A stretch of DNA of 64,000 nucleotides from Candidatus Woesearchaeota archaeon (GCA_014729675.1 WJJM01000039.1:1479-65478); one strand, 5' to 3'. Shown: positions 2 through 58,629, counted from the stretch's first letter. The notes: generated from the sequence alone by a model not told the origin. Made by a program: numbers and translations.

Positions 2-946
2 TTAAGGCATCTTGGAGCTCAGGGTCCTACTTATTCAGGGGTAATCAGTTATATAAATGGCCTTAATGCAAACCCTGCTTTTAATGAGTTTGCATCTGAT
101 TGGCATCTTGCATCGCAGACTGAAATGGATTTTCTTATAAATAATTACTCTCTTGATAATATTAGTTCTCATTTTGGTTATGCTAAGTTTCAACAGTCAG
201 GAGGTTCAAGAAAAAGGTGGTATTACGGCAGATATGAAAATGTGCCCTCGTCAGGATATCACAGCAGATGGAGATTTATCAAGGACTATGATGATTCCTA
301 TTATAATATTGGTTTTGATTCAGTTGATGACACTTCAAGAACATGGGATACTGCAGCCTGGATAACAGCAACTTTTAATTCTTATAATGTTACTAAGCCG
401 GCTGGTTCAGGATATGATTTGTATGATTCATATGGAAATTCAATTGTTAATTCCACTTACAAGAAAACTATAATTGCACAGATAGGTGGAGATGTTAAGG
501 TTGAATTTGAGATAAATGCAAGCATAAACTTAAGTGAAGTTTTTGTTGATGCAGATTCTACAAGTACAGTCGTTGCTAATCTTGGAGAGGTAGATGGAGT
601 TACTGGGAACCATACTTTATATGTGCCTGTTGTTGAAGAGATAGGAGTTTATGTATGTCCTGATGCTGAAACATTATCTGAGATAACAACTTCTTGTTCA
701 GGATATGAGCTGTTTGATTATGCTACTGAATGTGATGGAAATACAGCAAAGAATGTTGGAGGAGATAGTGTTATATGCGAGATAGTCTCAGGCAACTATA
801 AATTAAGTGGATTGACTGGATCGGGCGGAGGAGATTATGATCTTCTTGAAGGAGGTTCTGTCCCTGAATTCTCTACAATTGGGATGGTTCTTGCTGTGAT
901 GATTGCAGGAATAGGAATTGTGTTAGTTGTTAAGAAAAGAAAATAA
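2..946 (+). CDS. Secreted surface protein with C-terminal PEF-CTERM-like sorting signal (5-prime partial; frame is open to window start)
   Basis: Frame of ORF 125..946 has no stop back to nt 2. C-terminus GGSVPEFSTIGMVLAVMIAGIGIVLVVKKRK = PEF motif + TM helix + basic tail. Confidence 0.6.
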   Translation, partial: LRHLGAQGPTYSGVISYINGLNANPAFNEFASDWHLASQTEMDFLINNYSLDNISSHFGYAKFQQSGGSRKRWYYGRYENVPSSGYHSRWRFIKDYDDSYYNIGFDSVDDTSRTWDTAAWITATFNSYNVTKPAGSGYDLYDSYGNSIVNSTYKKTIIAQIGGDVKVEFEINASINLSEVFVDADSTSTVVANLGEVDGVTGNHTLYVPVVEEIGVYVCPDAETLSEITTSCSGYELFDYATECDGNTAKNVGGDSVICEIVSGNYKLSGLTGSGGGDYDLLEGGSVPEFSTIGMVLAVMIAGIGIVLVVKKRK

Positions 947-1001
947 ACAACAGAAACATTTTTAAATAATTTTGTTTTTATATTTGAAATAGAGGTTTTT
1001 T

Positions 1002-4000
1002 ATGAAAGAGGGGTCAGATAGAAAAAACAGACTATTAAAGGCATTGCCTTTGGTCATAACTATCATCTTGATGGTTGTCTTGTTCTTTAGCTTAAGCAAT
1101 CTTCTTGGATCTTCTATAGATGTTAAGGATGAAGATGGAAATATAGTTGGAAAGTTTATCGTAGAAGAGAGAGAAGATGGAAAGTATGATCTTAGCCTTG
1201 AAAGTTCAGGTTATTCAGTGGGATCCTCTTCAGAAGAGATTGTCAGCAGTGTAGAAATAAAAGGTTCAGAAACTGATTCTATAAATTCAAGATTGGGCTA
1301 TGTTGATGACAATATGATAAACACTCAAGTTTTTGCAGTTGAAAATGCAAATGTTGAATCTGCAGAGATAACTGTTGAAAAGTTTGGAGATGTTAAACAT
1401 ATATACAAATGCGTTGATTTTGACATCGATAATTTTAGATGCAATGATTGGGAAAAAACAGATATTCCTTTCATCGATAATGGAGAGAGTATAACTTTTA
1501 CTGTAGATGGTTTTTCTGGATATGGTGGAGGAGCTGATATCTTTATCGGATGGGACAAGAAGATAGACTATGTTGGTGAGCATGACAGAGCTTATGATGT
1601 TGTTGTAGATAGTAATGATGATGTATATGTGGTTGGCAGATTGAGTCAAAATCAAACATTTAACTATGATCAGGACTGGTGGATAAAGAAATATAACAGG
1701 ACTGGTTATGAGTTATGGGAGAAAATATATAATAGAAATGGTGGTGATGAAGCTATAGCTGCTGCTTTGGACTCTGATGATAATATCTATATTGCAGGGA
1801 CTGCAGAAAATATAGTTAATGTTTCAAGCGGTGTTGATTGGTGGATAAAGAAACTGGACAGTTCAGGAAATGAGATTATAGTGGGATGGAATAAATCTTT
1901 CAGCGGAGATAGTTTGCTTGGGAATGATTATCTTCATGATATTGCAGTGGATTCTGAAGATAATGTTTATGTCGCAGGATATGGGATTGATCTTATCAGT
2001 GGAGGATCAAATTATGATCCCTGGTTAATGAAATTTAATTCTTCAGGTCATAAAGAATGGGAAAAAATATATAACTTTGGTTCTCCTGCAGAGTTTCAGG
2101 ATATTGGGCTGGATTCTGAGGATAATGTCTATGTAGTGGGTAGCACTTCAGCATCACCTCTAGAAAAAGGATGGCTTATAATGAAATTCAGCCCTTCTGG
2201 AAATGGATATTGGAATAAGACCCTTGATCTTTCACAATACGGCTCTGGCGCTTATGCAGTTGCATTAGATGATGAAGATAATATTTATGTGGGTGGCTTT
2301 GCTACCAATTATGTATCTGAAATTCCTACTAGCTCGGCAGATGTGGTGATAAAGAAATTCAATTCAAGCGGAATTGAAGATCCAAATTTGAACTTGAGTT
2401 TTGATTATAACTGGCAAGCTGATATCATCAGATCGATGATTATAGAAAATGGATCTCTTTATACTGCAATACAAGCTGGACAATCTTCTGGAGATTCTAT
2501 GTGGGGCATAAAAAAATTCAATCTTTCAGGTGATGAAGATCCTAATTGGAATATGACATTTATCAGTGAAGCTATCACTAGCACATATAGCCATGCTATC
2601 CTTTTTGGAATAGATTCTGATAGTTTTAATGATATATATGTGGCTGGATTTGGGACTGATCTTGTAGATGATGATAGCGGTAATGATTGGTGGATAAAGA
2701 AATTTTCAGGGAATTTAACACAAGCAGAGTATAATGAATCACTCTTAAAAGATGTTATAATCGAGCTTGTTGAGCCTTCTTCAAACTCAGAAGTTGAAAA
2801 AAATAAATTCTTTGATTTTACTGTAAATGTTACATGCACAGATGATGAAGATTGTGGTCTGCTTAATGTAAGCCTTGATCCGGTATCATGGTGGGATGGT
2901 GATTGGAGATATAGAAATACTATAACAATCCCAAGTGGAAAGGTAAGTTCTGATCTTGAAGATTTTCCTATGCTTGTGAAGTTTGATTCAGATGATATTG
3001 ACTTTACAGATGCAAAATCAGGAGGAGAGGATATAAGATTTTTAGATTCTGATGAGAATCTTCTTTCATATGAGATAGAAAGATGGGACAGTTCAGAGCA
3101 GAAAGCTGAAGTTTGGGTTAAAGTTCCTGTTATTAGTTCAACTGAATCTACTGTATTGTATCTGTATTACGGCAATGATGATGCTTCAGATGCTCAGGAT
3201 CCTGATGATGTATGGGATGATAATTTTAATGGTGTTTGGCACTTAACAGAGAATGTTTCTGGAACTGGTGATACTGGAGTATATATTGATTCAACAGACA
3301 ACAACAATGACGGAACAGATTATGTTTCTTCTGATTCTAAAATCGGAAAAATACAAGGAGGACAGGGATTTGATGGGGATGATTATATAGATGTCCCTGA
3401 TGATTCTAGTTTGGACAATTCAGTGTATACTATAACTGCATGGATCAATATGAGCAGTGGAGGATATCAACTTGATGGAATATTTGCCGCACAGACCTAT
3501 GATTATATTATTGCAGGGGGAAATGGAGATTTTGAAGCTATAAGGGGTAATAAATATTTTAAAGATGTGGGAACTAATCTAGATGATGGCCAATGGCATC
3601 ATGTTGTGTATAAATATGATGGTGTGGATGATCTTTTCTTTATAGACGGCATATCTGAAACTCCAGGAGCAACAGGTTCAGCATCTTATACTGATATGAT
3701 AGCAATTGGAAGAAGCAAATGGGGTTATTTTGATGGAGATATAGATGAAGTCAGGGTTTCTAATTTTGCAAGAAGTGATGCATGGATTATAGCTGAATTT
3801 GATAATACTAATGATCCTTCAGATTTTTATAATTTAGGAGAAAAGGAAATTGGATCAAAATCAGGATTAATATCTACTGAAATAGGAGAAACTCCATTTT
3901 ATACAACAACAGACAACCCATATCAGGTTGATCTTGATTCAGGCGAGTCTCAGCTTGTAACCTGGGAAGTTAATGCTACAGGATTATACAGCATAGTACA

Positions 4001-6974
4001 TGAGTTTTTCGCTTATGCATCTTTAGATGATAATTTATATATATTGAATGAGAGTGAGAGGATAAATATAACCATAACAGACCAAGAAGATCCATCTGTT
4101 GAGCTTGAATCTCCTGCAGATGAAAAGGTTCTTACAGTAACTTTTGAAACATTTGTATGCAATGTTTCAGACAATTATGGCCTTTCAAATATCACTCTAA
4201 TGGTATGGGATTCTGAAGGTAATGTTGAATATTCATATAGTAAAGAATCAGCAGGTTCAGAAGATAATCTTGAGAAACAATATGTTTTCAGTTCTTCAGA
4301 GGATTACGATTGGAACTGTATAGCTTATGATAGTTTTGGCAACAGAGGAATTGCAGGTTCAAACAATTCACTGAATGTACAGATACCTTCTTTAAATATT
4401 CAGCTTGTAGATCCTGATTCAAATGTGAGCTGGACACAAAATAAATTTGGAAATTTTACTGTGAATTTTTCATGCAATGATTATGATTGCGGAGAGGTTA
4501 ATGTAACCTTAGATCCTTTGGCTGAATGGAGCAATTCGAAACTTGTAAAGATAGACAATGCAGGCAATACTGAACTGATAAATAATAGTGTAAAGATAAT
4601 TTTTGATACACAGAGTGAGATAGCAGAAGGAGATATGCAAGATGATTGTGATGATATAAGATTTATGGATACAGATGATTCAACTGCCTTAGATTATTGG
4701 CTTGATTCTGATACATGTGATACAGAAGAAACAGAGATATGGGTCAAGATACCATCTATAGATTCTAACAGCATAAAGTACATCTATCTTTATATGGGCA
4801 ATGAAAGCGCTGAACAGGGATCAGATGCTAAAGGTGTTTTTCCTAATCAAAATATAAACCATCCTGACTTAAGCGGATATACTGATGTCATATATGTCGA
4901 TGCTGAACTTGGAAATGATATTTCAGGAGATGGAAGCTTAGACAATCCTTATCAGACATTGAGAGAAGCGGCAGATTATGATGATCCAGATGATGCTATT
5001 TATCTTATGCCTGGAACTTATGAAGAAAGAGGGGGTGGCCCTACATTAGATGGGGATCTTATAGGTGCTTTAGGTGGAAAGGTGATTATCAATGCAGGTG
5101 TTTATGGAAATACATGGAGAAGAGCAATATGGCTTACAAACAATGAGCATAATTTCTATAATATCATCTTTGAGCATTATAATGGATCAGACGGATCAAA
5201 CTATTATTTTGGAGATGTGGGTTCTGACAGCATATATTTTTACAACTGTGTTTTCAGCAATGCGGTCTATGATGGGCTTTATCAAGACAGTTATTTCAGG
5301 AATATAGATTATGTGTACTTAAACAATTCATTTGAGAATACGTATCTTAAGTCATTGGGGCAGGCAGAGGTAAAAATATCATTGAATTCAGTAATGAATG
5401 ACTCTGAGTCCTTTACACTTCAGACTACAAGCCTTTATGCAAATGAAACCTCCTATGATTCAGAGTGGCAATTGACATCAGGAGAGTGGGAAAATGAAGG
5501 GACAGGTACAAATCCTGATGGAACTAAGGCCAATATAGGAGTATATGGAGGGGAATATGCATGGGGTTATTGGGGTCCTGCAACTTCTGTAAATGAGAAA
5601 GGCAGAGTTTCAACTATAGTTGGAGATATTCCTTTTTATACAATAACTGACAATCCTTATATAACTGATCTTGATGCAGGTGAATCTCAGATTATAACAT
5701 GGCAAGTAAATGCTACAGGACCTATAGATAATACTTATCTTTTCTTTGTCCATGCAAACTCAACAAGTGACAGCACTATAAATTACAGGACTGAAGATAT
5801 CTATATAACTATAACAGATGAAGGATGCACTGATTCAGATTCAGATGGTTATGATGCTTGTGATCTGAACGGAAATCCGATAGCTGGATGTGATAATCCC
5901 TGTGATTGCAATGATACAGAATTAAATATCAATCCTGGAGAAGAACAGTGCGGGAACTGCATAGATGATGATGCAGATACATATATTGATTATCCTGCTG
6001 ATACAGATTGTTCAAGTTTGGATGATACAACTGAAGATGATGGAGCAGGAGGGAATGAACCTGTATGGGCTGACATATCAGTTGTTGTAACTGATGAAGA
6101 CCTTACAGACACAACGACTACGCTTTCAGATTATATTGTTTCAGGCTGCGATCTTGGCTGCACTTATACTGTTCAGTCAGATTCTGCAGGCATAACTGCA
6201 GATGTAATAAACGGAAATACATTAAGAGTAGTTCCTGATGGAAATTACAGGGGTTATGGAAATGTAACTGTAAGAGCTGCAAATCTTGAAGGGCATTCAG
6301 ATGAATATATTGATGTTAAAGTGTTATCTATACCTGACTTTGGAACAGATATACAGTTGGATGAAAACTATTTTAACGGAGAGAATACCACTGATATTAG
6401 TGCTCTTACAGATATTGTTGGAGGATATCAAAATGAATCTGATCCTCTTCATGCATACTCTAATTCAGTATATTTCTTCTCATTAGAAAGAACACTCATA
6501 GGAAAGGTTACATTTGAAGGATATTTCCCTTTTGTATGGGATCTTCTGCTTTCAGCGTCAAATGTTGTTATAGAGGAAGGATACATCTCTGTTGACTCTG
6601 ACTCTATATTCAAAAAAGTAAGCTACTGGATACATCATCCAATGGCAAAAGTTGAACTTTACAATATAGATCCTGCAGAATATGTGACTGATGGAGAAGG
6701 AGTTCCGATAGTTTATAGGGATGAAGATTTCCATCTTGCAGATGAGGACAGAACAGGCTGGCCTGAATGTGGATCAAATTGTGAGCCAGTTACATGGAAC
6801 AGTACAACCGGAACACTTACCTTTTATGTAGATGAGTTCTCATCACATACTCTTGATAAGTCTAATGGACAAGATCCTCCAGGAGGAGTTCCTGAGTTTT
6901 CTGCAATAGGTATGATCATCGCTATGATTCTAATGGGGATAGGCATGACCATAATTATACATAAGAAGAAATGA
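1002..6974 (+). CDS. Giant (1990 aa) secreted multidomain surface protein with PEF-CTERM anchor; beta-propeller WWIKK repeats, two DUF2341-like jellyroll modules, LamG-like lectin domain, beta-helix-like segment, Cys-rich module
   Basis: AGAGG SD 7 nt before ATG; N-terminal TM/signal LLKALPLVITIILMVVLFF; about 8 repeats of the D..D.VYV.G...(D)WWIKK motif; IRF.D.....L.YEIE.WD....A.VWVKVP......IYLYYGN twice; LamG-like WHHVVYKYDGV; C-terminal GGVPEFSAIGMIIAMILMGIGMTIIIHKKK. Confidence 0.7.
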   Translation: MKEGSDRKNRLLKALPLVITIILMVVLFFSLSNLLGSSIDVKDEDGNIVGKFIVEEREDGKYDLSLESSGYSVGSSSEEIVSSVEIKGSETDSINSRLGYVDDNMINTQVFAVENANVESAEITVEKFGDVKHIYKCVDFDIDNFRCNDWEKTDIPFIDNGESITFTVDGFSGYGGGADIFIGWDKKIDYVGEHDRAYDVVVDSNDDVYVVGRLSQNQTFNYDQDWWIKKYNRTGYELWEKIYNRNGGDEAIAAALDSDDNIYIAGTAENIVNVSSGVDWWIKKLDSSGNEIIVGWNKSFSGDSLLGNDYLHDIAVDSEDNVYVAGYGIDLISGGSNYDPWLMKFNSSGHKEWEKIYNFGSPAEFQDIGLDSEDNVYVVGSTSASPLEKGWLIMKFSPSGNGYWNKTLDLSQYGSGAYAVALDDEDNIYVGGFATNYVSEIPTSSADVVIKKFNSSGIEDPNLNLSFDYNWQADIIRSMIIENGSLYTAIQAGQSSGDSMWGIKKFNLSGDEDPNWNMTFISEAITSTYSHAILFGIDSDSFNDIYVAGFGTDLVDDDSGNDWWIKKFSGNLTQAEYNESLLKDVIIELVEPSSNSEVEKNKFFDFTVNVTCTDDEDCGLLNVSLDPVSWWDGDWRYRNTITIPSGKVSSDLEDFPMLVKFDSDDIDFTDAKSGGEDIRFLDSDENLLSYEIERWDSSEQKAEVWVKVPVISSTESTVLYLYYGNDDASDAQDPDDVWDDNFNGVWHLTENVSGTGDTGVYIDSTDNNNDGTDYVSSDSKIGKIQGGQGFDGDDYIDVPDDSSLDNSVYTITAWINMSSGGYQLDGIFAAQTYDYIIAGGNGDFEAIRGNKYFKDVGTNLDDGQWHHVVYKYDGVDDLFFIDGISETPGATGSASYTDMIAIGRSKWGYFDGDIDEVRVSNFARSDAWIIAEFDNTNDPSDFYNLGEKEIGSKSGLISTEIGETPFYTTTDNPYQVDLDSGESQLVTWEVNATGLYSIVHEFFAYASLDDNLYILNESERINITITDQEDPSVELESPADEKVLTVTFETFVCNVSDNYGLSNITLMVWDSEGNVEYSYSKESAGSEDNLEKQYVFSSSEDYDWNCIAYDSFGNRGIAGSNNSLNVQIPSLNIQLVDPDSNVSWTQNKFGNFTVNFSCNDYDCGEVNVTLDPLAEWSNSKLVKIDNAGNTELINNSVKIIFDTQSEIAEGDMQDDCDDIRFMDTDDSTALDYWLDSDTCDTEETEIWVKIPSIDSNSIKYIYLYMGNESAEQGSDAKGVFPNQNINHPDLSGYTDVIYVDAELGNDISGDGSLDNPYQTLREAADYDDPDDAIYLMPGTYEERGGGPTLDGDLIGALGGKVIINAGVYGNTWRRAIWLTNNEHNFYNIIFEHYNGSDGSNYYFGDVGSDSIYFYNCVFSNAVYDGLYQDSYFRNIDYVYLNNSFENTYLKSLGQAEVKISLNSVMNDSESFTLQTTSLYANETSYDSEWQLTSGEWENEGTGTNPDGTKANIGVYGGEYAWGYWGPATSVNEKGRVSTIVGDIPFYTITDNPYITDLDAGESQIITWQVNATGPIDNTYLFFVHANSTSDSTINYRTEDIYITITDEGCTDSDSDGYDACDLNGNPIAGCDNPCDCNDTELNINPGEEQCGNCIDDDADTYIDYPADTDCSSLDDTTEDDGAGGNEPVWADISVVVTDEDLTDTTTTLSDYIVSGCDLGCTYTVQSDSAGITADVINGNTLRVVPDGNYRGYGNVTVRAANLEGHSDEYIDVKVLSIPDFGTDIQLDENYFNGENTTDISALTDIVGGYQNESDPLHAYSNSVYFFSLERTLIGKVTFEGYFPFVWDLLLSASNVVIEEGYISVDSDSIFKKVSYWIHHPMAKVELYNIDPAEYVTDGEGVPIVYRDEDFHLADEDRTGWPECGSNCEPVTWNSTTGTLTFYVDEFSSHTLDKSNGQDPPGGVPEFSAIGMIIAMILMGIGMTIIIHKKK

Positions 6975-6979
6975 TTATC

Positions 6980-8035
6980 TTATTTATTCTTTTTTGAAGG
7001 TTTCTTTTTCATCCATCTTTTGAACAATGACAAGATGATGAAGAATGTTACAGCAAACCATATTATCCTTGCATTAGAGTGGAAAAGCTGTATGCCCAAT
7101 CCTGGGAAAAATATCCATACAAGGAAAAATAAAAATACCCTCATAGAGTCAAGCAAAAAATGAAGTAAAAATCCCATAAAAAAACCAAGAGCATATCTTA
7201 TCCTGTTAAGCTCCTTATAATTTACAACTCCATACAATAGCCAAAAGAAGATAAATGAGTAAAACATAACTTTTCCACTGCATCCAAGACTGTGATTTAC
7301 TGCTTGAGTCTTGTATCTTAGAGTGAACCCTAGATATTCAACAGTCATAGTCATCGAAGTGAATATTTTGCTTAGAAAAAAAGCTCCTAATTTTGCAGAA
7401 TGTACAGCAAGAAGAGCAAAGTAATAGCTGATTGTATGCATTATAGTCCCTTCTGATCTCACATGTTCAAAATAGTTGATAAATAAAAAAACATAGGAAG
7501 ATGCAAGTGCAAGAGATATAAGGATCTCTTTATACAGTTTTTTTGCAAGTTTCTTTATATCCTGTATAGAAAAGAGCAACAATACAGCAGATGATACATA
7601 GATGAATCCTGCCAAGTGCCAAAGCAAACTTGCCAATATCAGATTTTCCTGGGCAAAGGTTGTTGATTTTCCCAAAAATATCGTAAACCAAAATATAAAT
7701 GCATACGAGATTGCATGAAAAGGAATATATCTAAGATTGATCACATCTTTTTCCGATCTGAAATTTTTGATCTTTTTAAATCCTATCAGTATGAATATTA
7801 GCGGAAGATAAAAAAGAAAATCCTGGGTCAATGATCCTCTTATCAAAGGAGAAGCCTGATAAACAAGGGCAAATCCGCCCCTATTTGCAGTATCTACTCG
7901 AACTCCAAGAAAAAAAGCTTCTAATAGTGTAAGAATAATAAAAAATGTAATTTTTGAAAGGAGCAGATTATCTTTAATCTTTGCATATATTTTGTCTTTA
8001 AAAGAGATAATCTCTTTTGGCGCATATCTTTTCAA
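6980..8035 (-). CDS. Polytopic membrane protein, candidate archaeosortase (exosortase/archaeosortase family) for the PEF-CTERM substrates
   Basis: 8 or more predicted TM helices; CSG motif (NHSLGCSGKV) and a downstream Arg (DSMRVF) spaced like the Cys/Arg active-site pair of exosortase-family transpeptidases; convergent with and 6 nt from the giant PEF-CTERM gene. Confidence 0.4.
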   Translation of the reverse strand: MKRYAPKEIISFKDKIYAKIKDNLLLSKITFFIILTLLEAFFLGVRVDTANRGGFALVYQASPLIRGSLTQDFLFYLPLIFILIGFKKIKNFRSEKDVINLRYIPFHAISYAFIFWFTIFLGKSTTFAQENLILASLLWHLAGFIYVSSAVLLLFSIQDIKKLAKKLYKEILISLALASSYVFLFINYFEHVRSEGTIMHTISYYFALLAVHSAKLGAFFLSKIFTSMTMTVEYLGFTLRYKTQAVNHSLGCSGKVMFYSFIFFWLLYGVVNYKELNRIRYALGFFMGFLLHFLLDSMRVFLFFLVWIFFPGLGIQLFHSNARIIWFAVTFFIILSLFKRWMKKKPSKKNK

Positions 8036-8101
8036 TTTAACATCCTCTTTTTGATTGATTATATCTTGTCATGTATATAAAACTTTCTTCCTGATCCATA
8101 C

Positions 8102-8317
8102 TTGTGCAAAAAGTTTATATATGTTAAGTTCTATTTTGATGTTATGGACAGAGTAATAAGCTTTGCTGCAGGGGGATGTTTCTTAGGTACATTGATAGCT
8201 TTTTATCTTAATAATTATCAGGCAAATCCTTTTCTTCTGTTTCTGCTGCCTATGTGGGGAATGGTTTTAGGGATATCTTTGGCAAGAGCTATGAAGCCAA
8301 AAAAAGTTGTCAAATGA
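8102..8317 (+). CDS. Small membrane protein (two TM helices), hypothetical
   Basis: ORF only; hydrophobic segments; no recognisable motif. Confidence 0.25.
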   Translation: MCKKFIYVKFYFDVMDRVISFAAGGCFLGTLIAFYLNNYQANPFLLFLLPMWGMVLGISLARAMKPKKVVK

Positions 8318-8352
8318 AAAACTTTAAAAACTAATTCTTAATAACAAAACTT

Positions 8353-10113
8353 ATGGAAGCAAAAGAGCTTGTAAAGAAATATCTGGAATTTTTCAAGAGC
8401 AAAGAGCATGCAATGATAGAGTCAGCTTCACTGATCCCAGAGCATGATCCTACTGTTCTTTTTACAACTGCAGGGATGCATCCTTTAGTGCCTTTCCTGA
8501 TGGGAGAGCCTCATCCTTTGGGAAAACGACTGACTGATGTGCAAAAATGCATAAGGACAGGAGATATAGATGAAGTAGGGGATGCTTCTCATCTTACTTT
8601 TTTTGAGATGCTTGGAAACTGGAGCTTGGGGGATTATTTCAAGAAAGAAGCTATTGAGTGGAGTTTTGAGTTTCTGACAGAAGTTCTTGGATTTGATGCT
8701 GAAAAATTAAGTGTTACATGCTTTGCAGGAGATGATGATGCTCCAAGGGATGACGAATCTGCAAAGATATGGAAATCATTAGGGATTCCTGAAGACAGGA
8801 TATATTTTTTGCCTAAGGAAGATAATTGGTGGGGGCCTGCAGGAGAAACAGGGCCTTGCGGACCTGACACTGAGATGTTCATCGATACAGGCAAAGAAAA
8901 GTGCAGCCCAGAGTGCAGGCCTGGATGCGGCTGCGGAAAGTATTTTGAAGTTTGGAATGATGTTTTTATGCAGTATAATAAGACAAAAGAGGGCAAATAT
9001 GAACAGCTTAAGCAGAAGAATGTTGATACAGGCATGGGTGTAGAAAGGACTATAGCAATGATGCAGGGAAAAGAGACAGTATATGGGACCGGGCTTTTCA
9101 AGCCCATGATAGATCAGCTGAAAAAGCTTGCAGGTATTGAGAATTTTATCCAGGACCAGACAAAAAGCGTAAGAGTGATATGCGATCATATGCGAGCAGC
9201 TACGTTTATCCTTGGGGATGAAAGAGGAGCTGCTCCTTCAAATGTTGACCAGGGCTATATCTTAAGAAGATTTATCAGAAGAGCGATAAGGCATGGAAAA
9301 CTTTTAGGGATAGAAGGGGATCTGTGCAGGCCTTTGGCAAAGATAGTCATTAACCTGTATAAGGAAAGATATCCTGAGCTTGATAAGAAGACAGAATTTA
9401 TAATGGACGAGTTCCTGAAAGAAGAAAAAAAATTCAGGGAAACTTTAGAGAAAGGGTTGAAGGAATTTGGAAAGATCGCAGACAAAGACATAAGCGGAGA
9501 GGATGCTTTTTTGCTTTTCCAGTCTTATGGTTTTCCTCTTGAGATTACAAAAGAACTAGCCAATGAGAAAGGGATAAAGGTTGACGAAGAAGGATTTGAC
9601 AAAGAGTTTAAGAAGCATCAGGAATTAAGCAGAAAAGGAGCTGAGCAGAGATTCAAAGGAGGATTGTCTGAAGCTTCAGACATGACTGCAAAACTGCATA
9701 CAGCAACCCATCTTCTTGGAGAGGCTTTAAGAAAAGTTCTTGGAGATCCTGATATAAAACAGAAGGGAAGCAATATAACACCTGAAAGGCTTCGTTATGA
9801 TTTTAACTTTGATAGAAAGCTGACTGATGAGGAGAAGAAAGCAGTCGAGGATGAGGTCAACAAGCAGATAGAAGCTGGACTGGATGTCAGGAAAGAAGAG
9901 ATGAAGCTGCAGGATGCGCTGGATGCAGGAGCTCAGTCTGAGTTCGGAGCAAAATATCCTGAGAAGGTATGGGTCTACAGTGTTGGAGATTATTCCAAAG
10001 AGATATGCATGGGACCTCATGTTTCAAACACTTCTGAACTTGGTCATTTCAGGATAAAGAAAGAAGAATCAAGTTCTGCAGGTGTTAGGAGAATCAAAGC
10101 TGTTCTGGAATAG
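8353..10113 (+). CDS. alaS: Alanyl-tRNA synthetase, unusually short form (586 aa) with catalytic core and editing domain, no C-Ala domain
   Basis: N-terminal PTVLFTTAGM...RTGDIDEVGD..HLTFFEMLGNWSLGDYFK class-II AlaRS core; editing-domain His/Cys signature HTATHLL...CMGPHV near C-terminus. Confidence 0.8.
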   Translation: MEAKELVKKYLEFFKSKEHAMIESASLIPEHDPTVLFTTAGMHPLVPFLMGEPHPLGKRLTDVQKCIRTGDIDEVGDASHLTFFEMLGNWSLGDYFKKEAIEWSFEFLTEVLGFDAEKLSVTCFAGDDDAPRDDESAKIWKSLGIPEDRIYFLPKEDNWWGPAGETGPCGPDTEMFIDTGKEKCSPECRPGCGCGKYFEVWNDVFMQYNKTKEGKYEQLKQKNVDTGMGVERTIAMMQGKETVYGTGLFKPMIDQLKKLAGIENFIQDQTKSVRVICDHMRAATFILGDERGAAPSNVDQGYILRRFIRRAIRHGKLLGIEGDLCRPLAKIVINLYKERYPELDKKTEFIMDEFLKEEKKFRETLEKGLKEFGKIADKDISGEDAFLLFQSYGFPLEITKELANEKGIKVDEEGFDKEFKKHQELSRKGAEQRFKGGLSEASDMTAKLHTATHLLGEALRKVLGDPDIKQKGSNITPERLRYDFNFDRKLTDEEKKAVEDEVNKQIEAGLDVRKEEMKLQDALDAGAQSEFGAKYPEKVWVYSVGDYSKEICMGPHVSNTSELGHFRIKKEESSSAGVRRIKAVLE

Positions 10114-10158
10114 GTTTTGTATTTTCTGAGATTTATCTATTTAAAAAACAATAACCTC

Positions 10159-10352
10159 TAGGTCAACAAGTTGCCCTGCGATAATTATTCAAAAATAATA
10201 ATAATCCATAACGCTCGCTTTGCTCGATACTATAGCGCTGAGACAGAGGCGTTGAGTTCTGGCTTCGCTTAAGCGAATTGAGCACTCAGATTGGCTCGTA
10301 CTGAGACTGTGCACGAACAGCGAAGCTGTGAGTGCCATAGGTGGGATTGATT
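10159..10352 (+). repeat. Copy A of dispersed GC-rich structured element family (taggtcaaca...gataacgctcgctttgctcg...gagacagaggcgttgagttctgg...gagactgtgcacga...gtgagtgccata.gtgggattga)
   Basis: Conserved blocks shared with copies at 18070, 52965, 61990 and 41285(-); TATA-like tttaaaaaa about 12 nt upstream; internal hairpin ACAGCgaaGCTGT; intergenic after alaS. Confidence 0.6.
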
Positions 10353-10595
10353 TGTATTTTGATTAAGGAATATTTTCTAATAAAGTTATTTGCCATGGAT
10401 TGAGATCTTTAAAATCCTGATCGCAAGGCAGGCTTTAAAAAATATATCCAATCTGGCTTAGGGATAGGATCAATAATCTTTAATCTTTTATCAAGAAAAT
10501 CATGAACTAAGTTATTAAAATTTAAATATATCTTATTATCTTTATCTTTGCATCAAAACTAAATATTTTTAAAGCTGAGTGTTTTGCTTTTTATC

Positions 10596-11390
10596 ATGAG
10601 GGGGTTAACTATAGATCTAGAGGACTGGTTCCAGGTATATAATTTCAGCAGGATAATAAAACAGGAAGACTGGGGCAAGCAGAGAGAGAGGGTCATAAGG
10701 AACACTGACAGGCTGCTGGATGTTCTTGATGAATACGATACTAAAGCTACATTCTTTGTCCTTGGATGGATAGCTGAAAAATATCCTTTTCTTGTGAATG
10801 AGATCGCGACAAGAGGCCATGAGATAGGATGTCATGGTTACAGCCATAAGCCTGTATTTCTTATGAGCAAAGAAGAGTTTGAGCATGATCTTGAAAGATC
10901 TGTAAAAGCAATAAAAAAAGCATGCGGAGCAAGGCCAAAAGGATACAGGGCTCCAAGTTTTTCTATAACAAAAAAGACATTGTGGGCATTGGATGTCCTG
11001 AAGGAAAATGGATTTGAGTATGATTCTTCTATGATGCCCACTGACAAACATCCTGATTATGGGATAAAAGGAATTCCACGGAAACCATTTATGATAAAAG
11101 GCATAAAAGAGATTCCTTTGACAACAGTACATGGACTGCCTGTAGGTGGAGGATATTTCAGGGCATACCCTTATATCTTGACAAGGTATCTGATGAAAAA
11201 AGACAAGAATTCTATATTTTATATCCACCCATGGGAGTTTGATCCAAAGATTCCAAGATACAATCTTCCTTTGTTGAAAAGGTTCAGGCATTATGTTGGA
11301 CTGAAAAAAACGAGAAAGAAGTTCAGGAAACTATTGAGGGATTTTAGATTTGATAAGCTGGATAATATCATCAAAAAGGACTTCTCTTGA
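10596..11390 (+). CDS. Polysaccharide deacetylase (NodB-homology), exosortase/PEP-CTERM-locus-type subfamily-like
   Basis: N-terminal LTIDLEDWFQV motif and TFFVLGWIAEKYP...GHEIGCHGYSH NodB core. ORF track starts at TTG 10584; ATG at 10596 preferred. Confidence 0.65.
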   Translation: MRGLTIDLEDWFQVYNFSRIIKQEDWGKQRERVIRNTDRLLDVLDEYDTKATFFVLGWIAEKYPFLVNEIATRGHEIGCHGYSHKPVFLMSKEEFEHDLERSVKAIKKACGARPKGYRAPSFSITKKTLWALDVLKENGFEYDSSMMPTDKHPDYGIKGIPRKPFMIKGIKEIPLTTVHGLPVGGGYFRAYPYILTRYLMKKDKNSIFYIHPWEFDPKIPRYNLPLLKRFRHYVGLKKTRKKFRKLLRDFRFDKLDNIIKKDFS

Positions 11391-13053
11391 AATATCTTGT
11401 ATGCAAAAGTTTTTCTGACTTTTTAGACAAAGGTTTGCCTAAGAATTCTTCATATATCTGTTTTATCATAGGATTTTCATGAGATTTTCTTAAAGGCAAT
11501 CTTTTGTCTTCTTCATAGATTGCTTCTATTCTTTTCTTTATCTTTTCTTTTTCATAAGGCAAAGGCTGACCTCCTCCACTTATACAGCCTCCAGGGCATG
11601 CCATGATCTCTATGAAATCAAATTTATCTTTCTCTTTAAGAAGTTCTCTTGCGTTTTTCAGGCCATTTGCAACTGCAAACCTTATCTTTTTTCCGTCAAG
11701 ATCAACTTTCCCTGTCTTTATACCATCTAACCCTCTTGTCTCTTTAAAATCAACACTTTTAAGCTCTTTTCCTGTTGCCAGTTCATAAGCTGTCCTTAAT
11801 GCTGCTTCCATTACCCCTCCTGTTGCGCCGAATATAGCTGCAGCTCCTGTGGACATGCCAAGCACAGGGTCAAAATCTTCATCAGAAAGATTTTTGAAAT
11901 CAATGTTGAAGTGCTCTATAAGCCTTGCTGTCTCTCTTGTTGTCAGAACATAATCAACTCCTGACTTCAGTTCAGGACGGGTCGACTCAAACTTCTTTGC
12001 TGTACAGGGCATTATGGATACAACTATTATATCCTCCTTAGGAATGTTTGCCTTTTTAGCATAATATGTTTTTATAAGGCTGCCAAGCATCTCGTGAGGA
12101 GATTTGCATGATGACATGTTCTTGTTTTTTATGAGATCATGATAGAAATGTTCCATGAACTTTATCCAGGCAGGGCAGCAGGTTGTTATCATAGGAAATC
12201 CTTTATTTTCTTTTATCCTCTTCAGAAGTTCAGAGCCTTCTTCCATGATCGTAAGGTCAGCTCCGAAGTTTGTGTCAAAAACTTTGTCAAAACCGCATCT
12301 TCTTAATGCAGCAACCATCTTTCCTGTAACTAAAGTTCCAGGAGGAAGATCAAATTCCTCTCCTAATGATGCTCTTATAGATGGAGCAGTCTGGACAACA
12401 ACATGTTTCTTTTTGTCTTTAAGAACCTTCAAAACTTCCTGCAGATGCTCTCTTTCTGAGATGGCTCCTACAGGGCATGCAGCTATACACTGTCCGCATT
12501 TTATGCATGCTACATCATTTAAGTTCTTTTCAGAATAAGGAGTTACGTGTTCATGATGAGCTCTTTGTGCAAAGTCTATAGCCCATGTTGACTGTATCTT
12601 GTCGCATACAGCAACACATCTTCCGCAATTTATGCAAAGATTATCATCTCTTATTACAGAAGCTCCTAAGTCAACCTTATATTTCTTTTTTGGATCAAAT
12701 CTTACTTCTCTAATGCCCAGTTCATGGATCAGTCTGCAAAGATCATGATTCTTGTTTTCTCTGAAGCATTTATCCATATGTTCTGGCATGAGAAGCTCTG
12801 CATTTACTTTTCTTGCCCTTTTTACTTTCTCAGAGTTTGTCTTTATCTCCATACCTTCTTTTGGATATGAACTGCAGGATGTTATCAGTTTTCCATCTTT
12901 TGTCTCAACAATACATAACCTGCATCTTGCTTCTGGCTCAAGGTTTTCCTGATAGCATAATGTAGGGATATTTATTCCGTTATCTTTGCATACTTGAAGA
13001 ATAGTCTTTCCTTCTTCACATTCAATTTTTTTGTTGTTGATCTTTATATTCAT
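11371..13053 (-). CDS. hydA: [FeFe]-hydrogenase catalytic subunit (HydA/HndD-like) with N-terminal 2Fe-2S and 4Fe-4S ferredoxin domains
   Basis: H-cluster motifs L1 TTCCPAW, L2 MPCTAKKFE, L3 EIMACPGGCISGGGQP; CINCGRCVAVC and CIKCGQCIAACP ferredoxin motifs. Confidence 0.85.
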   Translation of the reverse strand: MNIKINNKKIECEEGKTILQVCKDNGINIPTLCYQENLEPEARCRLCIVETKDGKLITSCSSYPKEGMEIKTNSEKVKRARKVNAELLMPEHMDKCFRENKNHDLCRLIHELGIREVRFDPKKKYKVDLGASVIRDDNLCINCGRCVAVCDKIQSTWAIDFAQRAHHEHVTPYSEKNLNDVACIKCGQCIAACPVGAISEREHLQEVLKVLKDKKKHVVVQTAPSIRASLGEEFDLPPGTLVTGKMVAALRRCGFDKVFDTNFGADLTIMEEGSELLKRIKENKGFPMITTCCPAWIKFMEHFYHDLIKNKNMSSCKSPHEMLGSLIKTYYAKKANIPKEDIIVVSIMPCTAKKFESTRPELKSGVDYVLTTRETARLIEHFNIDFKNLSDEDFDPVLGMSTGAAAIFGATGGVMEAALRTAYELATGKELKSVDFKETRGLDGIKTGKVDLDGKKIRFAVANGLKNARELLKEKDKFDFIEIMACPGGCISGGGQPLPYEKEKIKKRIEAIYEEDKRLPLRKSHENPMIKQIYEEFLGKPLSKKSEKLLHTRYFKRSPF

Positions 13054-14192
13054 CTTGCTGTCCTTTTTCTTGTCTTCTTCTCTTTAACCCTTTCTTCAAA
13101 CTCACTTCTGAAATATTTTAGAGCATTGAGAAGGTGGTTTGTTGAGGTCTGGCCAAGGCCGCAGAAGGATGTCTCCTTTATGACTTCTGCAAGCTCTTTT
13201 AGAGTGTCAAGATCTTTCATGTCTGCATTTTTCATAGATATGTTTTCAAGTATGTTCAGGATACGATATGTGCCTTCTCTGCAGGGAGTGCATTTTCCGC
13301 AGGATTCAAACTCATAAAATTTGGCTATGTTTGTAACTAAATCTACTATCGATTGTTTTTCATCTACTGCTATTATAGTGCAGGAGCCAAGCATGCATTC
13401 TTTTCCGCAAATAGCATCTGGGTGAAGAGGGATGTCACAATGAGGGATACACCCTCCAAAGCATCCAAAGAACACTGCTTTTATAGGATTTTTTGGTCTT
13501 CCAAGCTTAATCAGATCACATAAAGGAGTTCCTAAAGGAAGTTCATATACTCCTGGTCTTGTAACATTTCCGGACAATGAATATAATCTTAAGTTCTTGT
13601 TCCAATCATCATAGAGCATAGCCAGAGGAACATTTGCTAAAGTTTCAACATTATTGATCACTGTTGGCTTGCTATATAATCCTCTTACTGTTGGAAAAGG
13701 AGGTTTTGTTCTTGCCTGTCCTCTTTTGCCCTCTATTGATTCCAGGATCGCGGTTTCATCTCCGCATATATATGCTCCTGCTCCGATAACTATCTCAATA
13801 GGTGTTTCTGATCCTGTCCTGTTTTTTATCTTAGTTATTGCTTTTTTTAGTTTTGATTCTAAATAGTCATATTCTCCTCTTAAGTAGATGAATGCTTTTT
13901 TTGCTTTGATTGCATAGGCTGCTATAAGGATGCCTTCTATAAGTGCTTCTGGATTTTTTTCTATTATAAATTTGTCTTTGAAAGTTCCTGGCTCTCCTTC
14001 GTCAGCATTGCAGATGAGATATTTTTCAGAATCCTTTTCTTTTGAGACCATCTCCCATTTTGACCCTGTTGGAAAGTTAGCCCCTCCTCTTCCTGAAAGG
14101 CCTTTTTTCTTTATCAGGTCTATAGTCGCTTTTGAACCTAGTTTTATTGCTTTTCTATATGCTCTTTGAAGAGGTTTTCTTAGTATCTGCAT
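13050..14192 (-). CDS. hydB: NuoF-like NAD(P)H-binding flavoprotein subunit of hydrogenase (HydB/HndC-like)
   Basis: GRGGANFPTGSKW FMN/NADH motif; ESCGKCTPCREG 4Fe-4S motif; 4-nt overlap with hydA. Confidence 0.8.
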   Translation of the reverse strand: MQILRKPLQRAYRKAIKLGSKATIDLIKKKGLSGRGGANFPTGSKWEMVSKEKDSEKYLICNADEGEPGTFKDKFIIEKNPEALIEGILIAAYAIKAKKAFIYLRGEYDYLESKLKKAITKIKNRTGSETPIEIVIGAGAYICGDETAILESIEGKRGQARTKPPFPTVRGLYSKPTVINNVETLANVPLAMLYDDWNKNLRLYSLSGNVTRPGVYELPLGTPLCDLIKLGRPKNPIKAVFFGCFGGCIPHCDIPLHPDAICGKECMLGSCTIIAVDEKQSIVDLVTNIAKFYEFESCGKCTPCREGTYRILNILENISMKNADMKDLDTLKELAEVIKETSFCGLGQTSTNHLLNALKYFRSEFEERVKEKKTRKRTAR

Positions 14193-14596
14193 TATTTTAG
14201 CCCCTTTATTATTTCGTCAATCTTCTCTTTTGTCAAAGAAGTATACACTTCTTTGCCTATCTTCATGGCAGGAGCTTTATCACAGCAGCCGATGCATGAA
14301 CAGATATACAATGAAAATCTTTTGTCTTCTGTTGTCTGGCCTGATTTGATTTTAAGTTTTTTTTCAAGATATTTTATTATGTTTAATGAACCATTAAGAT
14401 AGCAGGAAGGAGAGTTGCATATCTCTATTATATGTTTTCCCTGAGGTTTAGTGTGGAGCTGTGAATAAAATGTTGCTGCAGCATATATCTTTGCTACAGG
14501 AATATTCATCTTTTTGCTGAGCTTTTTCATAGAATCTTCTGAGATATAGCCTTTTTTTCCCTGTATCTGTTTTAATTCTTTTAATAATAAAGACAT
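14192..14596 (-). CDS. hydC: NuoE-like thioredoxin-fold 2Fe-2S subunit (HydC/HndA-like)
   Basis: CNSPSCYLNGS...CSCIGCCDKAP cysteine pattern; internal ATG 14596 preceded by AGAGGTG SD preferred over the 218-aa ORF whose first 84 aa are low-complexity. Confidence 0.6.
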   Translation of the reverse strand: MSLLLKELKQIQGKKGYISEDSMKKLSKKMNIPVAKIYAAATFYSQLHTKPQGKHIIEICNSPSCYLNGSLNIIKYLEKKLKIKSGQTTEDKRFSLYICSCIGCCDKAPAMKIGKEVYTSLTKEKIDEIIKGLK

Positions 14597-14647
14597 TTTA
14601 CACCTCTTATTCTGATGGAGTGTTCTTTTGTTTAAATAGTTTTTTAT

Positions 14648-15274
14648 TTGATAATTGTAATGATGAATCATGATTTTAGAAAAATATTTAAACTGAACAA
14701 GTATCTTTTTATTATGTATGAATTTGAGAATGTAAAGAAGTTTTTTGACATTTCTGATTATAATTATAGTTCCATGTATAAATATATAGAATTGTTTATC
14801 TTTTCTGCTGCAGGATTTTTTATACCTTTTTTTATAGGGCATCCTCAAATAGTTGTGGGGATAATAGTGAACAGTTTTCTGATAAGTTCTTCATTAAAGT
14901 TTAAAGATTATAAGATATTGCCTGTAGTTGTGATGCCTTCATTGGGGGCTTTGTCAAGAGGGTTGTTGTTTGGGCCATATACTCCTTTTTTATTTTATAT
15001 GATTCCTTTTATTTGGATTGGAAATTATCTTTTAGTCTATGCTTTTAGGCAGTTTAAGCTTAAGAAGAAGCTTAATTATTGGCTTAGTCTTGGGATGGGT
15101 ATCGTTTTCAAGGCAGGATTCTTGTTTTTAACTGCTTACATATTCTATATTTTTGGAGTTGTTCCAGCTGTATTTTTGACTGCGATGGGAGTTATGCAGG
15201 CTATAACTGCTTTTGGAGGAGGAGTTGCTGCTTTTGGTTATGAGAAAATCAGCAGATGGGTCAATAGAAGTTAG
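14648..15274 (+). CDS. Integral membrane protein, hypothetical
   Basis: Multiple hydrophobic helices; no motif recognised. Confidence 0.35.
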   Translation: MIIVMMNHDFRKIFKLNKYLFIMYEFENVKKFFDISDYNYSSMYKYIELFIFSAAGFFIPFFIGHPQIVVGIIVNSFLISSSLKFKDYKILPVVVMPSLGALSRGLLFGPYTPFLFYMIPFIWIGNYLLVYAFRQFKLKKKLNYWLSLGMGIVFKAGFLFLTAYIFYIFGVVPAVFLTAMGVMQAITAFGGGVAAFGYEKISRWVNRS

Positions 15275-23625: not shown

Positions 23626-23646
23626 ATAAATAAAGAATAAACAAAT

Positions 23647-23740
23647 AGCCCTGCCCGGATTTGAACCGAGGTCCCAGGACCCAAAATCCTGGATGATTGG
23701 CCATTGTGCACAGCTTAAAGCTGTTCTACACTACAGGGCT
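23647..23740 (-). tRNA. tRNA-Gln (anticodon TTG) with a noncanonical 21-nt intron in the D-loop
   Basis: Manual fold: acceptor AGCCCTG/CAGGGCT, anticodon stem CAGGA/TCCTG with loop TTTTGGG, T-arm CTCGG-TTCAAAT-CCGGG. Relative to the paralog at 24794, AACAGCTTTAAGCTGTGCACA is inserted after GTGTAG. Confidence 0.6.
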
Positions 23741-32063: not shown

Positions 32064-32095
32064 TATGAATCTTTGACTCAACATCTGAGAGAATA

Positions 32096-33933: not shown

Positions 33934-34007
33934 GGTTTATTTAGAAATATTTATATAAGGTTATATGTTTTTTATTCTAAAATAATTATAAATGAGGTGC
34001 ATAGATA

Positions 34008-35876
34008 ATGAAAAAACTAGTTTTAATGTTAAGTTTGATTTTAATGATGAGTTCTTTTGCTTTTGCAGCTGGAAATGATGTAGATACTGTGTTATTATTG
34101 CACATGGATGGTGATGAAAGTGCATCTGAACATGTTGCTACTGTTAATGGTGACCCAGTTCTTGATGCTGGAGAGTATAAGTTTGATGGAAGTATGTATT
34201 TTGATGGTTCTGATGATTATTTGGCTGTTGCTGACAGCACTGATTGGAATTTTGGCTCAAATGACTTCACTATAGATTTTTGGGTTAATTTTGACCAGCT
34301 TACAGTGCATGATGCTGGACTTCAAACACTAATATCTTCAGGAACAGATTATGGTAGCAATTACTGGGCTTTGATGTATGGTGATGGTACTTATCCTACA
34401 AATACTGGAATTGGTTTTATAGATAAAGGGCAGGGAATAGAAGATTGTTTCCAAGGGGATCAGGATGGATGGAATGCAGAAACATGGTATCATATAGCTT
34501 TAGTTAGTTCTGGTAATACCCTTACAATCTATCGTAATGGGGTTGCTGTTCATTCGTGTAGCATTGGCAGTCTTACTGATTACAATTCTCCTATAAGGAT
34601 TGGCTCAAACCCTGAAGCAAGAAGAGAGTTTGGAGGATACATCGATGAACTAAGGATATCAAACAATGCACGCTGGACATCAGACTTTTCTTCAAGCTTG
34701 CCAAGCTCACCTTACACAGCAGATGCTAACACTAAATTATTATTAAGTCTTGATGGAGATGTTGCTGAAGGTGCATCAAATGATCATGATGTGACTTTCC
34801 ATGGTAATATTAAAATGAATGCAACAGAAAAACCTTCATCTGATTTTGAGGGCAGTTATTATTTTGACGGCAGTGATTTTTTGACAATACCTGATGACCC
34901 AGAAATTGAACTTGGAAGTGATGATTTTACAATTGACTTCTGGTTCAAAAGATTTGGCGGACATGGAAGTTTGGATGTCATCTTAGCAAAACAGGATGAT
35001 GGCCATACAAATGACCATTCGTATGGTATTAATTTTGGCACAGGAAATGAATTAAGTGCACAAATCTCTGATTCCAGCAGTTACAATACAGTTACATCAA
35101 CAACTTTATTTGGTTCAGGTGATACTGACTGGCATCATGTTTCTTTTATCCGTGAAGGTAGTAGAATGCTGCTTTACATAGATGGAATTTTAGAAGATAA
35201 TTTAACTGCGTCTGTAACTTCACAAGACACAAGTTATCCTTTGACAATCGGTAGATATGGTCAGACTAATTACTATTATACAAACTCATTTATTAGTGAT
35301 TTGAGGATAGTCAAAGGCGAAGCAATTATTCCTCCGGCTGGAGGTCCTACTGGTCCTTATGATGATTCAACTCCATGTACAGATGTAGATGATGATGACT
35401 ACTGTGATGAAGCAGAAATTTCTGGATGTGATAATACTATTTGTCCAACAGGATGGGATGACTGTGATGACAATACAGGGGATGATCCAACAGGATGTGC
35501 AAGTGCAACATGTACATTCAATTCAGGGTTAAGATTGTACAATGGAACTGGCTGCGCTAAATGTAAGTATGTACTAAGAGACGGACTTTGGCTTGATGAT
35601 AACTTGGATTACACAAAGGATGTACCTGGTTCAACAGATGATGTTTGTACAAGCAATGCATATAATGTTGATATGACTGCTTATGGAGGACCTTCATCTG
35701 CAGTTTATTATATGGGTTCAGCAAGTCCTGATGAGCAATATGCAGATCCTGCAAATGAACCTTTTAATTCAGGCGGAGAAGGAAATGGAGTTCCTGAGTT
35801 CTCATCTATAGGGATGGTTCTTGCACTGCTTATAGCTGGATTAGGAATAGTGTTCGTTATAAAGAAAAGAAGATAA
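34008..35876 (+). CDS. Secreted LamG/concanavalin-like lectin-domain protein with PEF-CTERM anchor
   Basis: GAGGTG SD; signal peptide; two LamG-like modules (DFTIDFWVNF...WYHIALVSSGNTLTIYRNG); Cys-rich region; C-terminal GNGVPEFSSIGMVLALLIAGLGIVFVIKKRR. Confidence 0.65.
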   Translation: MKKLVLMLSLILMMSSFAFAAGNDVDTVLLLHMDGDESASEHVATVNGDPVLDAGEYKFDGSMYFDGSDDYLAVADSTDWNFGSNDFTIDFWVNFDQLTVHDAGLQTLISSGTDYGSNYWALMYGDGTYPTNTGIGFIDKGQGIEDCFQGDQDGWNAETWYHIALVSSGNTLTIYRNGVAVHSCSIGSLTDYNSPIRIGSNPEARREFGGYIDELRISNNARWTSDFSSSLPSSPYTADANTKLLLSLDGDVAEGASNDHDVTFHGNIKMNATEKPSSDFEGSYYFDGSDFLTIPDDPEIELGSDDFTIDFWFKRFGGHGSLDVILAKQDDGHTNDHSYGINFGTGNELSAQISDSSSYNTVTSTTLFGSGDTDWHHVSFIREGSRMLLYIDGILEDNLTASVTSQDTSYPLTIGRYGQTNYYYTNSFISDLRIVKGEAIIPPAGGPTGPYDDSTPCTDVDDDDYCDEAEISGCDNTICPTGWDDCDDNTGDDPTGCASATCTFNSGLRLYNGTGCAKCKYVLRDGLWLDDNLDYTKDVPGSTDDVCTSNAYNVDMTAYGGPSSAVYYMGSASPDEQYADPANEPFNSGGEGNGVPEFSSIGMVLALLIAGLGIVFVIKKRR

Positions 35877-36008
35877 TCTTCTTTTTTCTTTTTATTTTTT
35901 TAAATATCCATATGAAGAGAACAAGTTCTCAGATATAAATATCCTGGAAATCTAATTTCCATAATATTTATATATAGCTTATCATTTAATAGTCTAAGAG
36001 GTGTTAAT

Positions 36009-36760: not shown

Positions 36761-36969
36761 ATTTTATTTTGATTGTTCAAATTAGATTTTATATCTTGCA
36801 GCCTGCTTTGGTCAGGAATTTTTATTATCTCCTTGCTATCAAAAATAATTCTAAAAATTAATCGAAACATTTATATATCAGTATAGTAATGTGTATACTA
36901 TTTTGGTAGTTATAAACTATCAAAAGAACAGCAAATCAATTTTATTTGCAAACAAAGAGGTGAAAACAA

Positions 36970-55522: not shown

Positions 55523-55545
55523 TTTAAAATTAAAAAAATAAAAAA

Positions 55546-58553: not shown

Positions 58554-58629
58554 ACAGATTTAAATACCGATACAACAATTATAAAGAATGGGAAAATTTA
58601 ACCTTTATTCGAGATTTGAAGGAAGATAC

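Follow-up and report, generated by a model that had tools for sequence, protein, structure and literature searches.

The only experimentally studied archaeal relative of the system described here is ArtA, which acts on PGF-CTERM proteins in Haloferax volcanii. The ArtA system is Cys-dependent, takes Sec and Tat substrates and couples their cleavage to lipid anchoring. Cys173, Arg214 and Arg253 of ArtA are critical for activity (PMC9263693), and a thioacyl-type route has been modelled, with cleavage resolved onto lipid (PMC7157517). In the ArtC/PEF-CTERM system (TIGR03762/TIGR03024), found in Methanosarcinales, ANME-2 and others, enzyme and tail are paired within the same genome (PMC5244752). 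Reviews place archaeosortases in a subset of the Euryarchaeota, the halophiles and methanogens (including bioRxiv 10.1101/2023.06.07.544157), and we found no paper linking them to Woesearchaeota or other named DPANN lineages. Here we report the analysis of 64 kb of DNA from Candidatus Woesearchaeota archaeon (64,000 nucleotides, WJJM01000039.1:1479-65478; the window), in which three genes for secreted proteins share a C-terminal tail and two of the three lie at the locus of a 351-residue membrane protein, directly adjoining its gene. We propose that tails and membrane protein form a compact exosortase/archaeosortase-type sorting system, a reading to which we assign, from sequence comparison, a probability of about 0.7.

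Like the ArtC/PEF-CTERM system, the proposed system is archaeal, has Pro-Glu-Phe ahead of a transmembrane (TM) helix and a basic cluster, and has a polytopic enzyme of the exosortase/archaeosortase superfamily in the same genome as the tails. Unlike that system, it has an enzyme with no ArtC match and DxxR in place of NxxR, tails that fall below the PEF-CTERM cutoff and carry the longer signature VPEFS-x-IGM, and a host that is a DPANN archaeon and not a euryarchaeote. ArtA serves as the mechanistic template for our model, although the window has VPEFS instead of PGF, no match to the ArtA model and no clear PssA or PssD partner. With the bacterial XrtA/EpsH-PEP-CTERM systems the window shares a deacetylase that passes TIGR03006 near an EpsH-like gene, and relatives of its enzyme lie in glycan loci as EpsH does. 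Unlike those systems, it belongs to an archaeal, single-membrane host, its enzyme has no Xrt match and no adjoining exopolysaccharide (EPS) genes, and its signature is PEF, not PEP. We read the finding as a sorting system of a known kind, in a new and very divergent form, from a Woesearchaeota metagenome-assembled genome (MAG); its mechanism we infer by homology.

Three secreted proteins share one tail module

Three open reading frames (ORFs) of the window, encoding substrates A, B and C (Table 1), end in the same 28-residue module, which consists of VPEFS-x-IGM, about 17 hydrophobic residues as a TM helix, and KKRK, HKKK or KKRR. VPEF occurs three times in the six frames of the window, each time exactly 28 codons ahead of a stop. 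A six-frame scan for a helix followed by a K/R tail yielded five ORFs, namely the three tail proteins, the 351-residue protein and one that is unrelated (Table 1). Protein identity between the three tails is 45-71%, and 5% over the 19 residues that precede them. Between 8 of 22 and 9 of 15 of the identical residues are encoded by different codons, so that the likeness is preserved in the protein sequence and does not stem from a recent DNA copy. The original prediction, which described three secreted proteins with the same tripartite signal, is borne out here.

Haft 2023 (bioRxiv 10.1101/2023.06.07.544157) lists six attributes of tripartite C-terminal sorting signals: the signal stands at the C-terminus, occurs in several copies per genome, has a signature with at least three invariant residues, includes a hydrophobic helix and a basic cluster, and belongs to proteins that begin with a signal peptide. 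The VPEFS module has all six, with three copies in 64 kb and at least five invariant residues (VPEFS) abutting a strongly hydrophobic helix. A signal-peptide-like N-terminus, read by eye, is present on both full-length tail proteins, the two that are complete in the window.

The 351-residue membrane protein and its relatives

The same 351-residue sequence is on record as GF336_04080, a protein annotated as hypothetical, from a 65.8-kb contig of a Candidatus Woesearchaeota archaeon. When 1.84 billion representative proteins were searched in full with HMMER, just four relatives came up (phmmer E-values are given). P0002 (E=3.6e-31) comes from a metagenome of 26% GC and P0003 (E=6.5e-30) from another Woesearchaeota MAG; on the family model TIGR04178 they reach 21.4 and 17.1 bits, both below the cutoff. 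The other two pass this model: P0004 (E=7.2e-7), on a short Logan contig, at 40.4 bits, with PF09721 Exosortase_EpsH on record and a weak ArtC score of 31 bits, and P0005 (E=4.3e-4), from a Candidatus Peribacteria MAG of the candidate phyla radiation (CPR), at 35.8 bits. Word-index protein searches with the enzyme and with alignment A1, which comprises five sequences (the window protein and its relatives), returned only the enzyme itself and P0005, and a genome-contig profile scan with A1 returned the Peribacteria contig only. Viral-contig scans with alignments A1 and A3 gave nothing.

A partial exosortase-family ORF on a 6.4-kb metagenome contig (L009) ties the protein to the superfamily. It reaches 55.7 bits on TIGR04178 and has its highest scores with models of bacterial exosortases (XrtE 64 bits, EpsH 33, XrtA 28); a tblastn search with it against plasmids gave nothing. 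In composition-adjusted BLASTP the 351-residue protein matches this ORF at E=5e-9, with 27% identity over 199 residues. A comparison of A1 with the same ORF in hhalign gave a probability of 97.6% (E=4.7e-12, 218 columns), and a hidden Markov model (HMM) built from A1 recovered it at E=1.9e-16; no other sequence, either in the window or in the further loci analysed, rose above noise. Invariant in A1 are C252, G254, R280, G288, R299, L317-F-H319-S320 and W341. Its CxG, (N/D)xxR and His motifs, which read G-C252-S-G, D296-S-M-R299 and F-H319-S in the window protein, line up in register with CSG, NILR and FHS of the L009 ORF.

It is therefore well supported by these alignments that the 351-residue protein is a very divergent homologue of the exosortase/archaeosortase superfamily. 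The homology is drawn through relatives that pass family models, because its own TIGR04178 score is sub-threshold. Its membership of ArtC or of another named subfamily is not supported: the ArtC model TIGR03762 (cutoff 100 bits) and Pfam, including PF09721, gave no match at E<=1, and neither the ArtA model nor any Xrt model matched. The CSG motif and downstream Arg that had been predicted are both present, as C252-S-G and R299, and are invariant and aligned with the L009 member. For the family a Cys/Arg/His triad is suspected (Haft 2023, bioRxiv 10.1101/2023.06.07.544157), and not Cys/Arg/Asn as originally stated; the conserved motifs agree with this triad and with the critical Cys173 of ArtA, and where the family has the Asn of NxxR the 351-residue protein has Asp. 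If helix 200-224 does not cross the membrane, the counts of K and R in the loops fit an N-in/C-in topology in which the loops of Cys252 and His319 are poor in K and R, and by the positive-inside rule both residues would lie in outer loops.

Tails and enzyme relatives also occur together elsewhere. Scanning with the tail alignment, we could confirm a PEFS-x-IGM tail at only three loci, two of them distinct, in 241 million metagenome records. At L009, a 128-residue secreted protein ending IDIPEFSTIGM...RRKRK is encoded 3 kb from the exosortase-family ORF, and its IPEFS tail just passes PEP_CTERM (17.1 vs 16). A locus with the tail IVPEFSTIGM (L008) has the same metagenome of origin as the P0002 locus. 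A protein search with the tail alignment, in which only two candidates shared words with the query, returned nothing.

On the Candidatus Peribacteria contig CAZBSN010000020.1 (L001), the exosortase P0005 is encoded at 5828-6820, with tail genes upstream (2839-5831). The 458- and 78-residue products of the genes directly upstream share ...(H)(M/I)RITVYYT..VPD(L/I)(P/S)WWSVL, a helix and FRLPRKF.NAPRT. This VPD(L/I)(P/S)WWS tail seems to be a sorting signal not described before, reserved for the CPR exosortase encoded next to it. A third gene of this locus (4351-5595) has an N-terminus like that of the first and no tail.

Counting the window, L009 and L001, enzyme relatives lie beside shared tripartite tails in three independent places, and the tail signature changes with the enzyme. 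Enzyme-signal pairs that evolve together should show just this pattern. Neither partner is common: the tail was found at 3 loci in the 241 million metagenome records, and the enzyme clade has four relatives.

Competing explanations and a proposed mechanism

Several results weigh against a sorting system. The 351-residue protein passes no curated model; its match to TIGR04178 (cutoff 23 bits) spans the profile end to end, from position 5 to 96 of 97, but scores 19.3 bits (E=1.1e-3). The suggestion of a candidate archaeosortase thus stands at the level of a superfamily homologue, by way of the relatives, and fails at the level of ArtC. Its AlphaFold2 model, with 8-9 long helices, is confident in the C-terminal half only, and fold searches returned only generic helical matches from the PDB, in which neither exosortases nor archaeosortases are represented. 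In all three Woesearchaeota-type members Asp takes the place of the Asn of NxxR, and activity could be altered as a result. The enzyme gene is convergent with the giant substrate B gene, as predicted, across a gap of 5 nucleotides (6975-6979) and not 6; being convergent, the two are not co-transcribed. No tail-bearing genes were found on the P0002 contigs (7.6-8.7 kb) or in 17 kb of the 27-kb contig of P0003, and the host genome was seen as one contig only, which limits the co-occurrence of tail and enzyme to that contig.

The scores of the tails belong with these points. The cutoffs are 23 bits for PEF-CTERM (TIGR03024), 19.9 for Loki-CTERM (NF033507), 16 for PEP-CTERM and 15.9 for LPXTG_anchor. 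On TIGR03024 the isolated tails score 12.9, 11.5 and 16.2 bits, and the full-length 622-residue protein 12.4. Loki-CTERM, at 14.8-17.2 bits, is the best or second-best sub-threshold match for all three; we found no literature on Loki-CTERM. PEP-CTERM gives at most 13.1 bits. The sole tail model passed is the generic LPXTG_anchor, one time only (16.9 bits). The assignment to the PEF-CTERM class made from the sequence therefore survives in its PEF signature, helix and basic tail in an archaeon, and not in the model search. By the curated cutoff the tail is a PEF-type variant, VPEFS-x-IGM, that falls outside TIGR03024. PGF-CTERM, which the original prediction had named as the class that would speak against it, finds no counterpart here, with no PGF motif in any of the three tails and no PGF-CTERM model among their matches.

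Part of this evidence suits a different explanation, in which the VPEFS tails are unprocessed membrane anchors with a lineage-specific juxtamembrane motif and the 351-residue protein serves envelope glycan or EPS biogenesis. The loci of P0002 (L003, L004, L005) and of P0003/P0006 (L006, L012) hold polysaccharide-biosynthesis genes in a bacterial EpsH-like setting (GT1, GT2, GT4, Wzy_C, Wzx-like, Polysacc_synt, Bac_transf and PAP2), where no tail-bearing genes were found on the contigs examined, and the VPEFS tails score weakly on the generic anchor models LPXTG_anchor and NPXTG. The window enzyme, unlike P0002 and P0003, has no glycan-biosynthesis neighbours. The relatives' contigs are short, however, and in bacteria EpsH/XrtA genes, too, occupy EPS loci while having PEP-CTERM proteins as partners (TIGR02602, TIGR03006). 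Plain anchoring also makes three independent adjacencies of enzyme and tail genes, and five invariant residues abutting the helix, hard to explain. We consider it unlikely.

If the 351-residue protein were instead a degenerate, catalytically altered homologue, such as a pseudo-enzyme or chaperone, with the tails processed by another protease or not at all, its sub-threshold scores on every family model and the N-to-D change in all three Woesearchaeota-type members would be accounted for. Yet among sequences that share no more than 22-35% identity, the Cys, both Arg and the His never vary, nor do the flanking Gly, Leu, Phe, Ser and Trp, which indicates purifying selection on the active-site motifs, and the Asp is a conservative replacement for Asn that is itself conserved within the clade. 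We regard this reading as quite improbable. That the adjacency is coincidental and the weak HMM match an artefact of hydrophobic composition in an unrelated membrane protein, as the empty Pfam scan, the TIGR04178 E-value and the generic PDB matches might suggest, is effectively refuted by the BLASTP and hhalign matches to the 55.7-bit L009 member with motifs in register, by the A1 HMM match to the same ORF and by the phmmer match to P0004, which has PF09721 on record (E=7e-7 in a search of 1.84e9 proteins).

The sorting system that we favour would operate as follows. Surface proteins would be exported by Sec through their N-terminal signal peptides, and the C-terminal helix, with the K/R tail as stop-transfer signal, would keep them in the membrane for a time. 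On the outer side of the membrane the 351-residue enzyme would recognise VPEFS where it abuts the helix, and Cys252, aided by Arg299 and His319, would cleave off the tail by way of a thioacyl intermediate. By analogy with ArtA (PMC7157517), the new C-terminus might then be passed to a membrane lipid (a lipid amine) or to another envelope acceptor, so that the cell surface would display the lectin and beta-propeller cargo. The sequence features and the gene adjacency are what the data show; every chemical step of this scheme we infer by homology.

A broader proposal is more doubtful. The window enzyme, the two Woesearchaeota-type relatives and those from Peribacteria and metagenomes might form an undescribed clade of dedicated, small exosortase-like enzymes common to ultra-small DPANN archaea and CPR bacteria, each with its own co-evolved tail (VPEFS-x-IGM/IPEFS or VPDxxWW) and a place within or beside glycan-modifying genes. 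The adhesin or lectin cargo might be joined to a glycan or glycolipid acceptor instead of a plain lipid, in which case the TIGR03006 deacetylase would prepare that acceptor. We regard this proposal as tentative, with the chances well against it.

The locus offers a testable anchoring route for surface proteins of DPANN archaea: a tail of 28 residues, an enzyme candidate and, within it, three residues that may be catalytic. Since Pfam and NCBIfam models miss this enzyme clade, annotation of small-genome lineages probably overlooks such systems. Both the N-to-D change and the nearby XrtA-type deacetylase provide handles on the choice of acceptor by exosortase-family enzymes.

Deacetylase, cargo and other features of the window

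Table 1. Features of the 64-kb window, with positions counted from its first nucleotide
Feature	Position	Strand	Details
Substrate A, 3' part of a surface-protein gene running off the window start	2..946	+	tail VPEFSTIGMVLAVMIAGIGIVLVVKKRK at 860-943
Substrate B, 1990-residue secreted giant surface protein	1002..6974	+	tail VPEFSAIGMIIAMILMGIGMTIIIHKKK at 6888-6971
351-residue polytopic membrane protein, candidate sorting enzyme	6980..8035	-	conserved core residues 250-343, nucleotides 7007-7288
Cys252 of the 351-residue protein, candidate catalytic codon	7280-7282		
Arg299 of the 351-residue protein, candidate catalytic codon	7139-7141		
His319 of the 351-residue protein, candidate catalytic codon	7079-7081		
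Putative gene, 71-residue ORF	8102-8317	+	C-terminal hydrophobic helix and basic end
Alanyl-tRNA synthetase	8353-10113	+	
268-residue NodB-type polysaccharide deacetylase, XrtA-system subfamily	10584..11390	+	N-terminus MLFIMRGLTIDLEDWFQV, no signal peptide
HydABC-type [FeFe]-hydrogenase cluster	11371-14848	-	large subunit with small-subunit domain, NuoF-like, NuoE-like
tRNA-Gln	23646-23715		ARAGORN alone
Type IV pilus-like locus	30417-37407		
T2SSE ATPase	30417-32063		
Two T2SSF membrane proteins	32096-33933		
Substrate C, 622-residue secreted protein	34008..35876	+	two LamG/ConA-like lectin domains; tail VPEFSSIGMVLALLIAGLGIVFVIKKRR at 35790-35873
Two pilin-like genes	36009-36491, 36970-37407		common N-terminus KKAQAAMEFLMTYGWA
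Long tRNA gene, 106 nucleotides	46939-47044		Rfam
Two further surface-type proteins	53270-56652	-	cadherin-like, PKD and Big_9 domains
Long tRNA gene, 87 nucleotides	57125-57211	-	Rfam
Phosphatidyltransferase cluster	58588-61866		
Unrelated ORF of the helix and K/R-tail scan	60938-61447		

The deacetylase had been predicted to belong to the subfamily of exosortase loci, and in this respect the prediction holds, with 304.7 bits on TIGR03006 against an equivalog cutoff of 276.2. Its Pfam domains are Polysacc_deac_1 (PF01522) and DUF3473 (PF11959), and its translation contains H-x-x-x-H (HGYSH) and RAP motifs. The TIGR03006 family is defined by its place near an EpsH/exosortase homologue, in an EPS locus of a PEP-CTERM organism. 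Membership in the sorting system itself is less secure. The deacetylase gene lies 2.5 kb from the exosortase-like gene, no EPS or polysaccharide genes stand beside either of them in the window, and their link is weak because the alanyl-tRNA synthetase gene comes between, the hydrogenase operon follows and the P0002/P0003 loci contain no deacetylase. That sorting and glycans are connected is plausible, given the glycan loci in which P0002 and P0003 lie. A functional link between deacetylase and enzyme, argued from proximity, is possible but the less probable case.

The divergent intergenic region between the enzyme and alanyl-tRNA synthetase genes contains the 71-residue ORF. The hydrogenase cluster directly after the deacetylase points to fermentative H2 metabolism in the host archaeon.

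Domain scans of substrate B gave an N-terminal signal or anchor, SBBP beta-propeller repeats, Laminin_G_3, two DUF2341 and a DUF1565-like stretch, in agreement with the beta-propeller/lectin protein of 1990 residues that had been predicted. Substrate A has no Pfam domain except weak matches to generic anchor models. The N-terminus of substrate C is a canonical signal peptide, MKKLVLMLSLILMMSSFAFA. An adhesion role is a reasonable one for such lectin- and propeller-rich cargo. DPANN archaea are thought to rely on physical contact with a host, and giant surface proteins are prime candidates for making it; that the cargo acts as an episymbiont attachment factor is speculation.

The gene for substrate C is placed between type IV pilus assembly genes and the two pilin-like genes, and its product has a sub-threshold match to the TafC fimbrial family (49.6 bits). 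The two surface-type proteins encoded further downstream lack the VPEFS tail, which indicates that the signal is used by only a subset of surface proteins.

The phosphatidyltransferase cluster comprises three CDP-alcohol phosphatidyltransferase paralogues, a GT4 glycosyltransferase and a divergent PAP2 protein. The best sub-threshold match of the GT4 protein is monoglucosyl-diacylglycerol synthase. As candidates for a PssA-type partner of the kind found in ArtA systems, the three phosphatidyltransferases (58.6-61.4 kb) were rejected, since they reach no archaetidylserine-synthase or equivalog cutoff.

The host is confirmed as an archaeon of the Woesearchaeota (DPANN), in line with the DPANN-like genome first suspected. 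Its archaeal markers are the archaeal/eukaryotic N-terminal domain of uS15, an XPD-type helicase, RecJ/DHH-CID, an ATP-dependent DNA ligase, Helicase_dom4_arc, a diphthamide synthase and the long tRNA genes of 87 and 106 nucleotides. Rfam found nothing between positions 2 and 11390, the region of the tails and enzyme described above. Both long tRNA genes probably contain introns; ARAGORN missed the 106-nucleotide gene and read the 87-nucleotide one with an odd 4-base anticodon.

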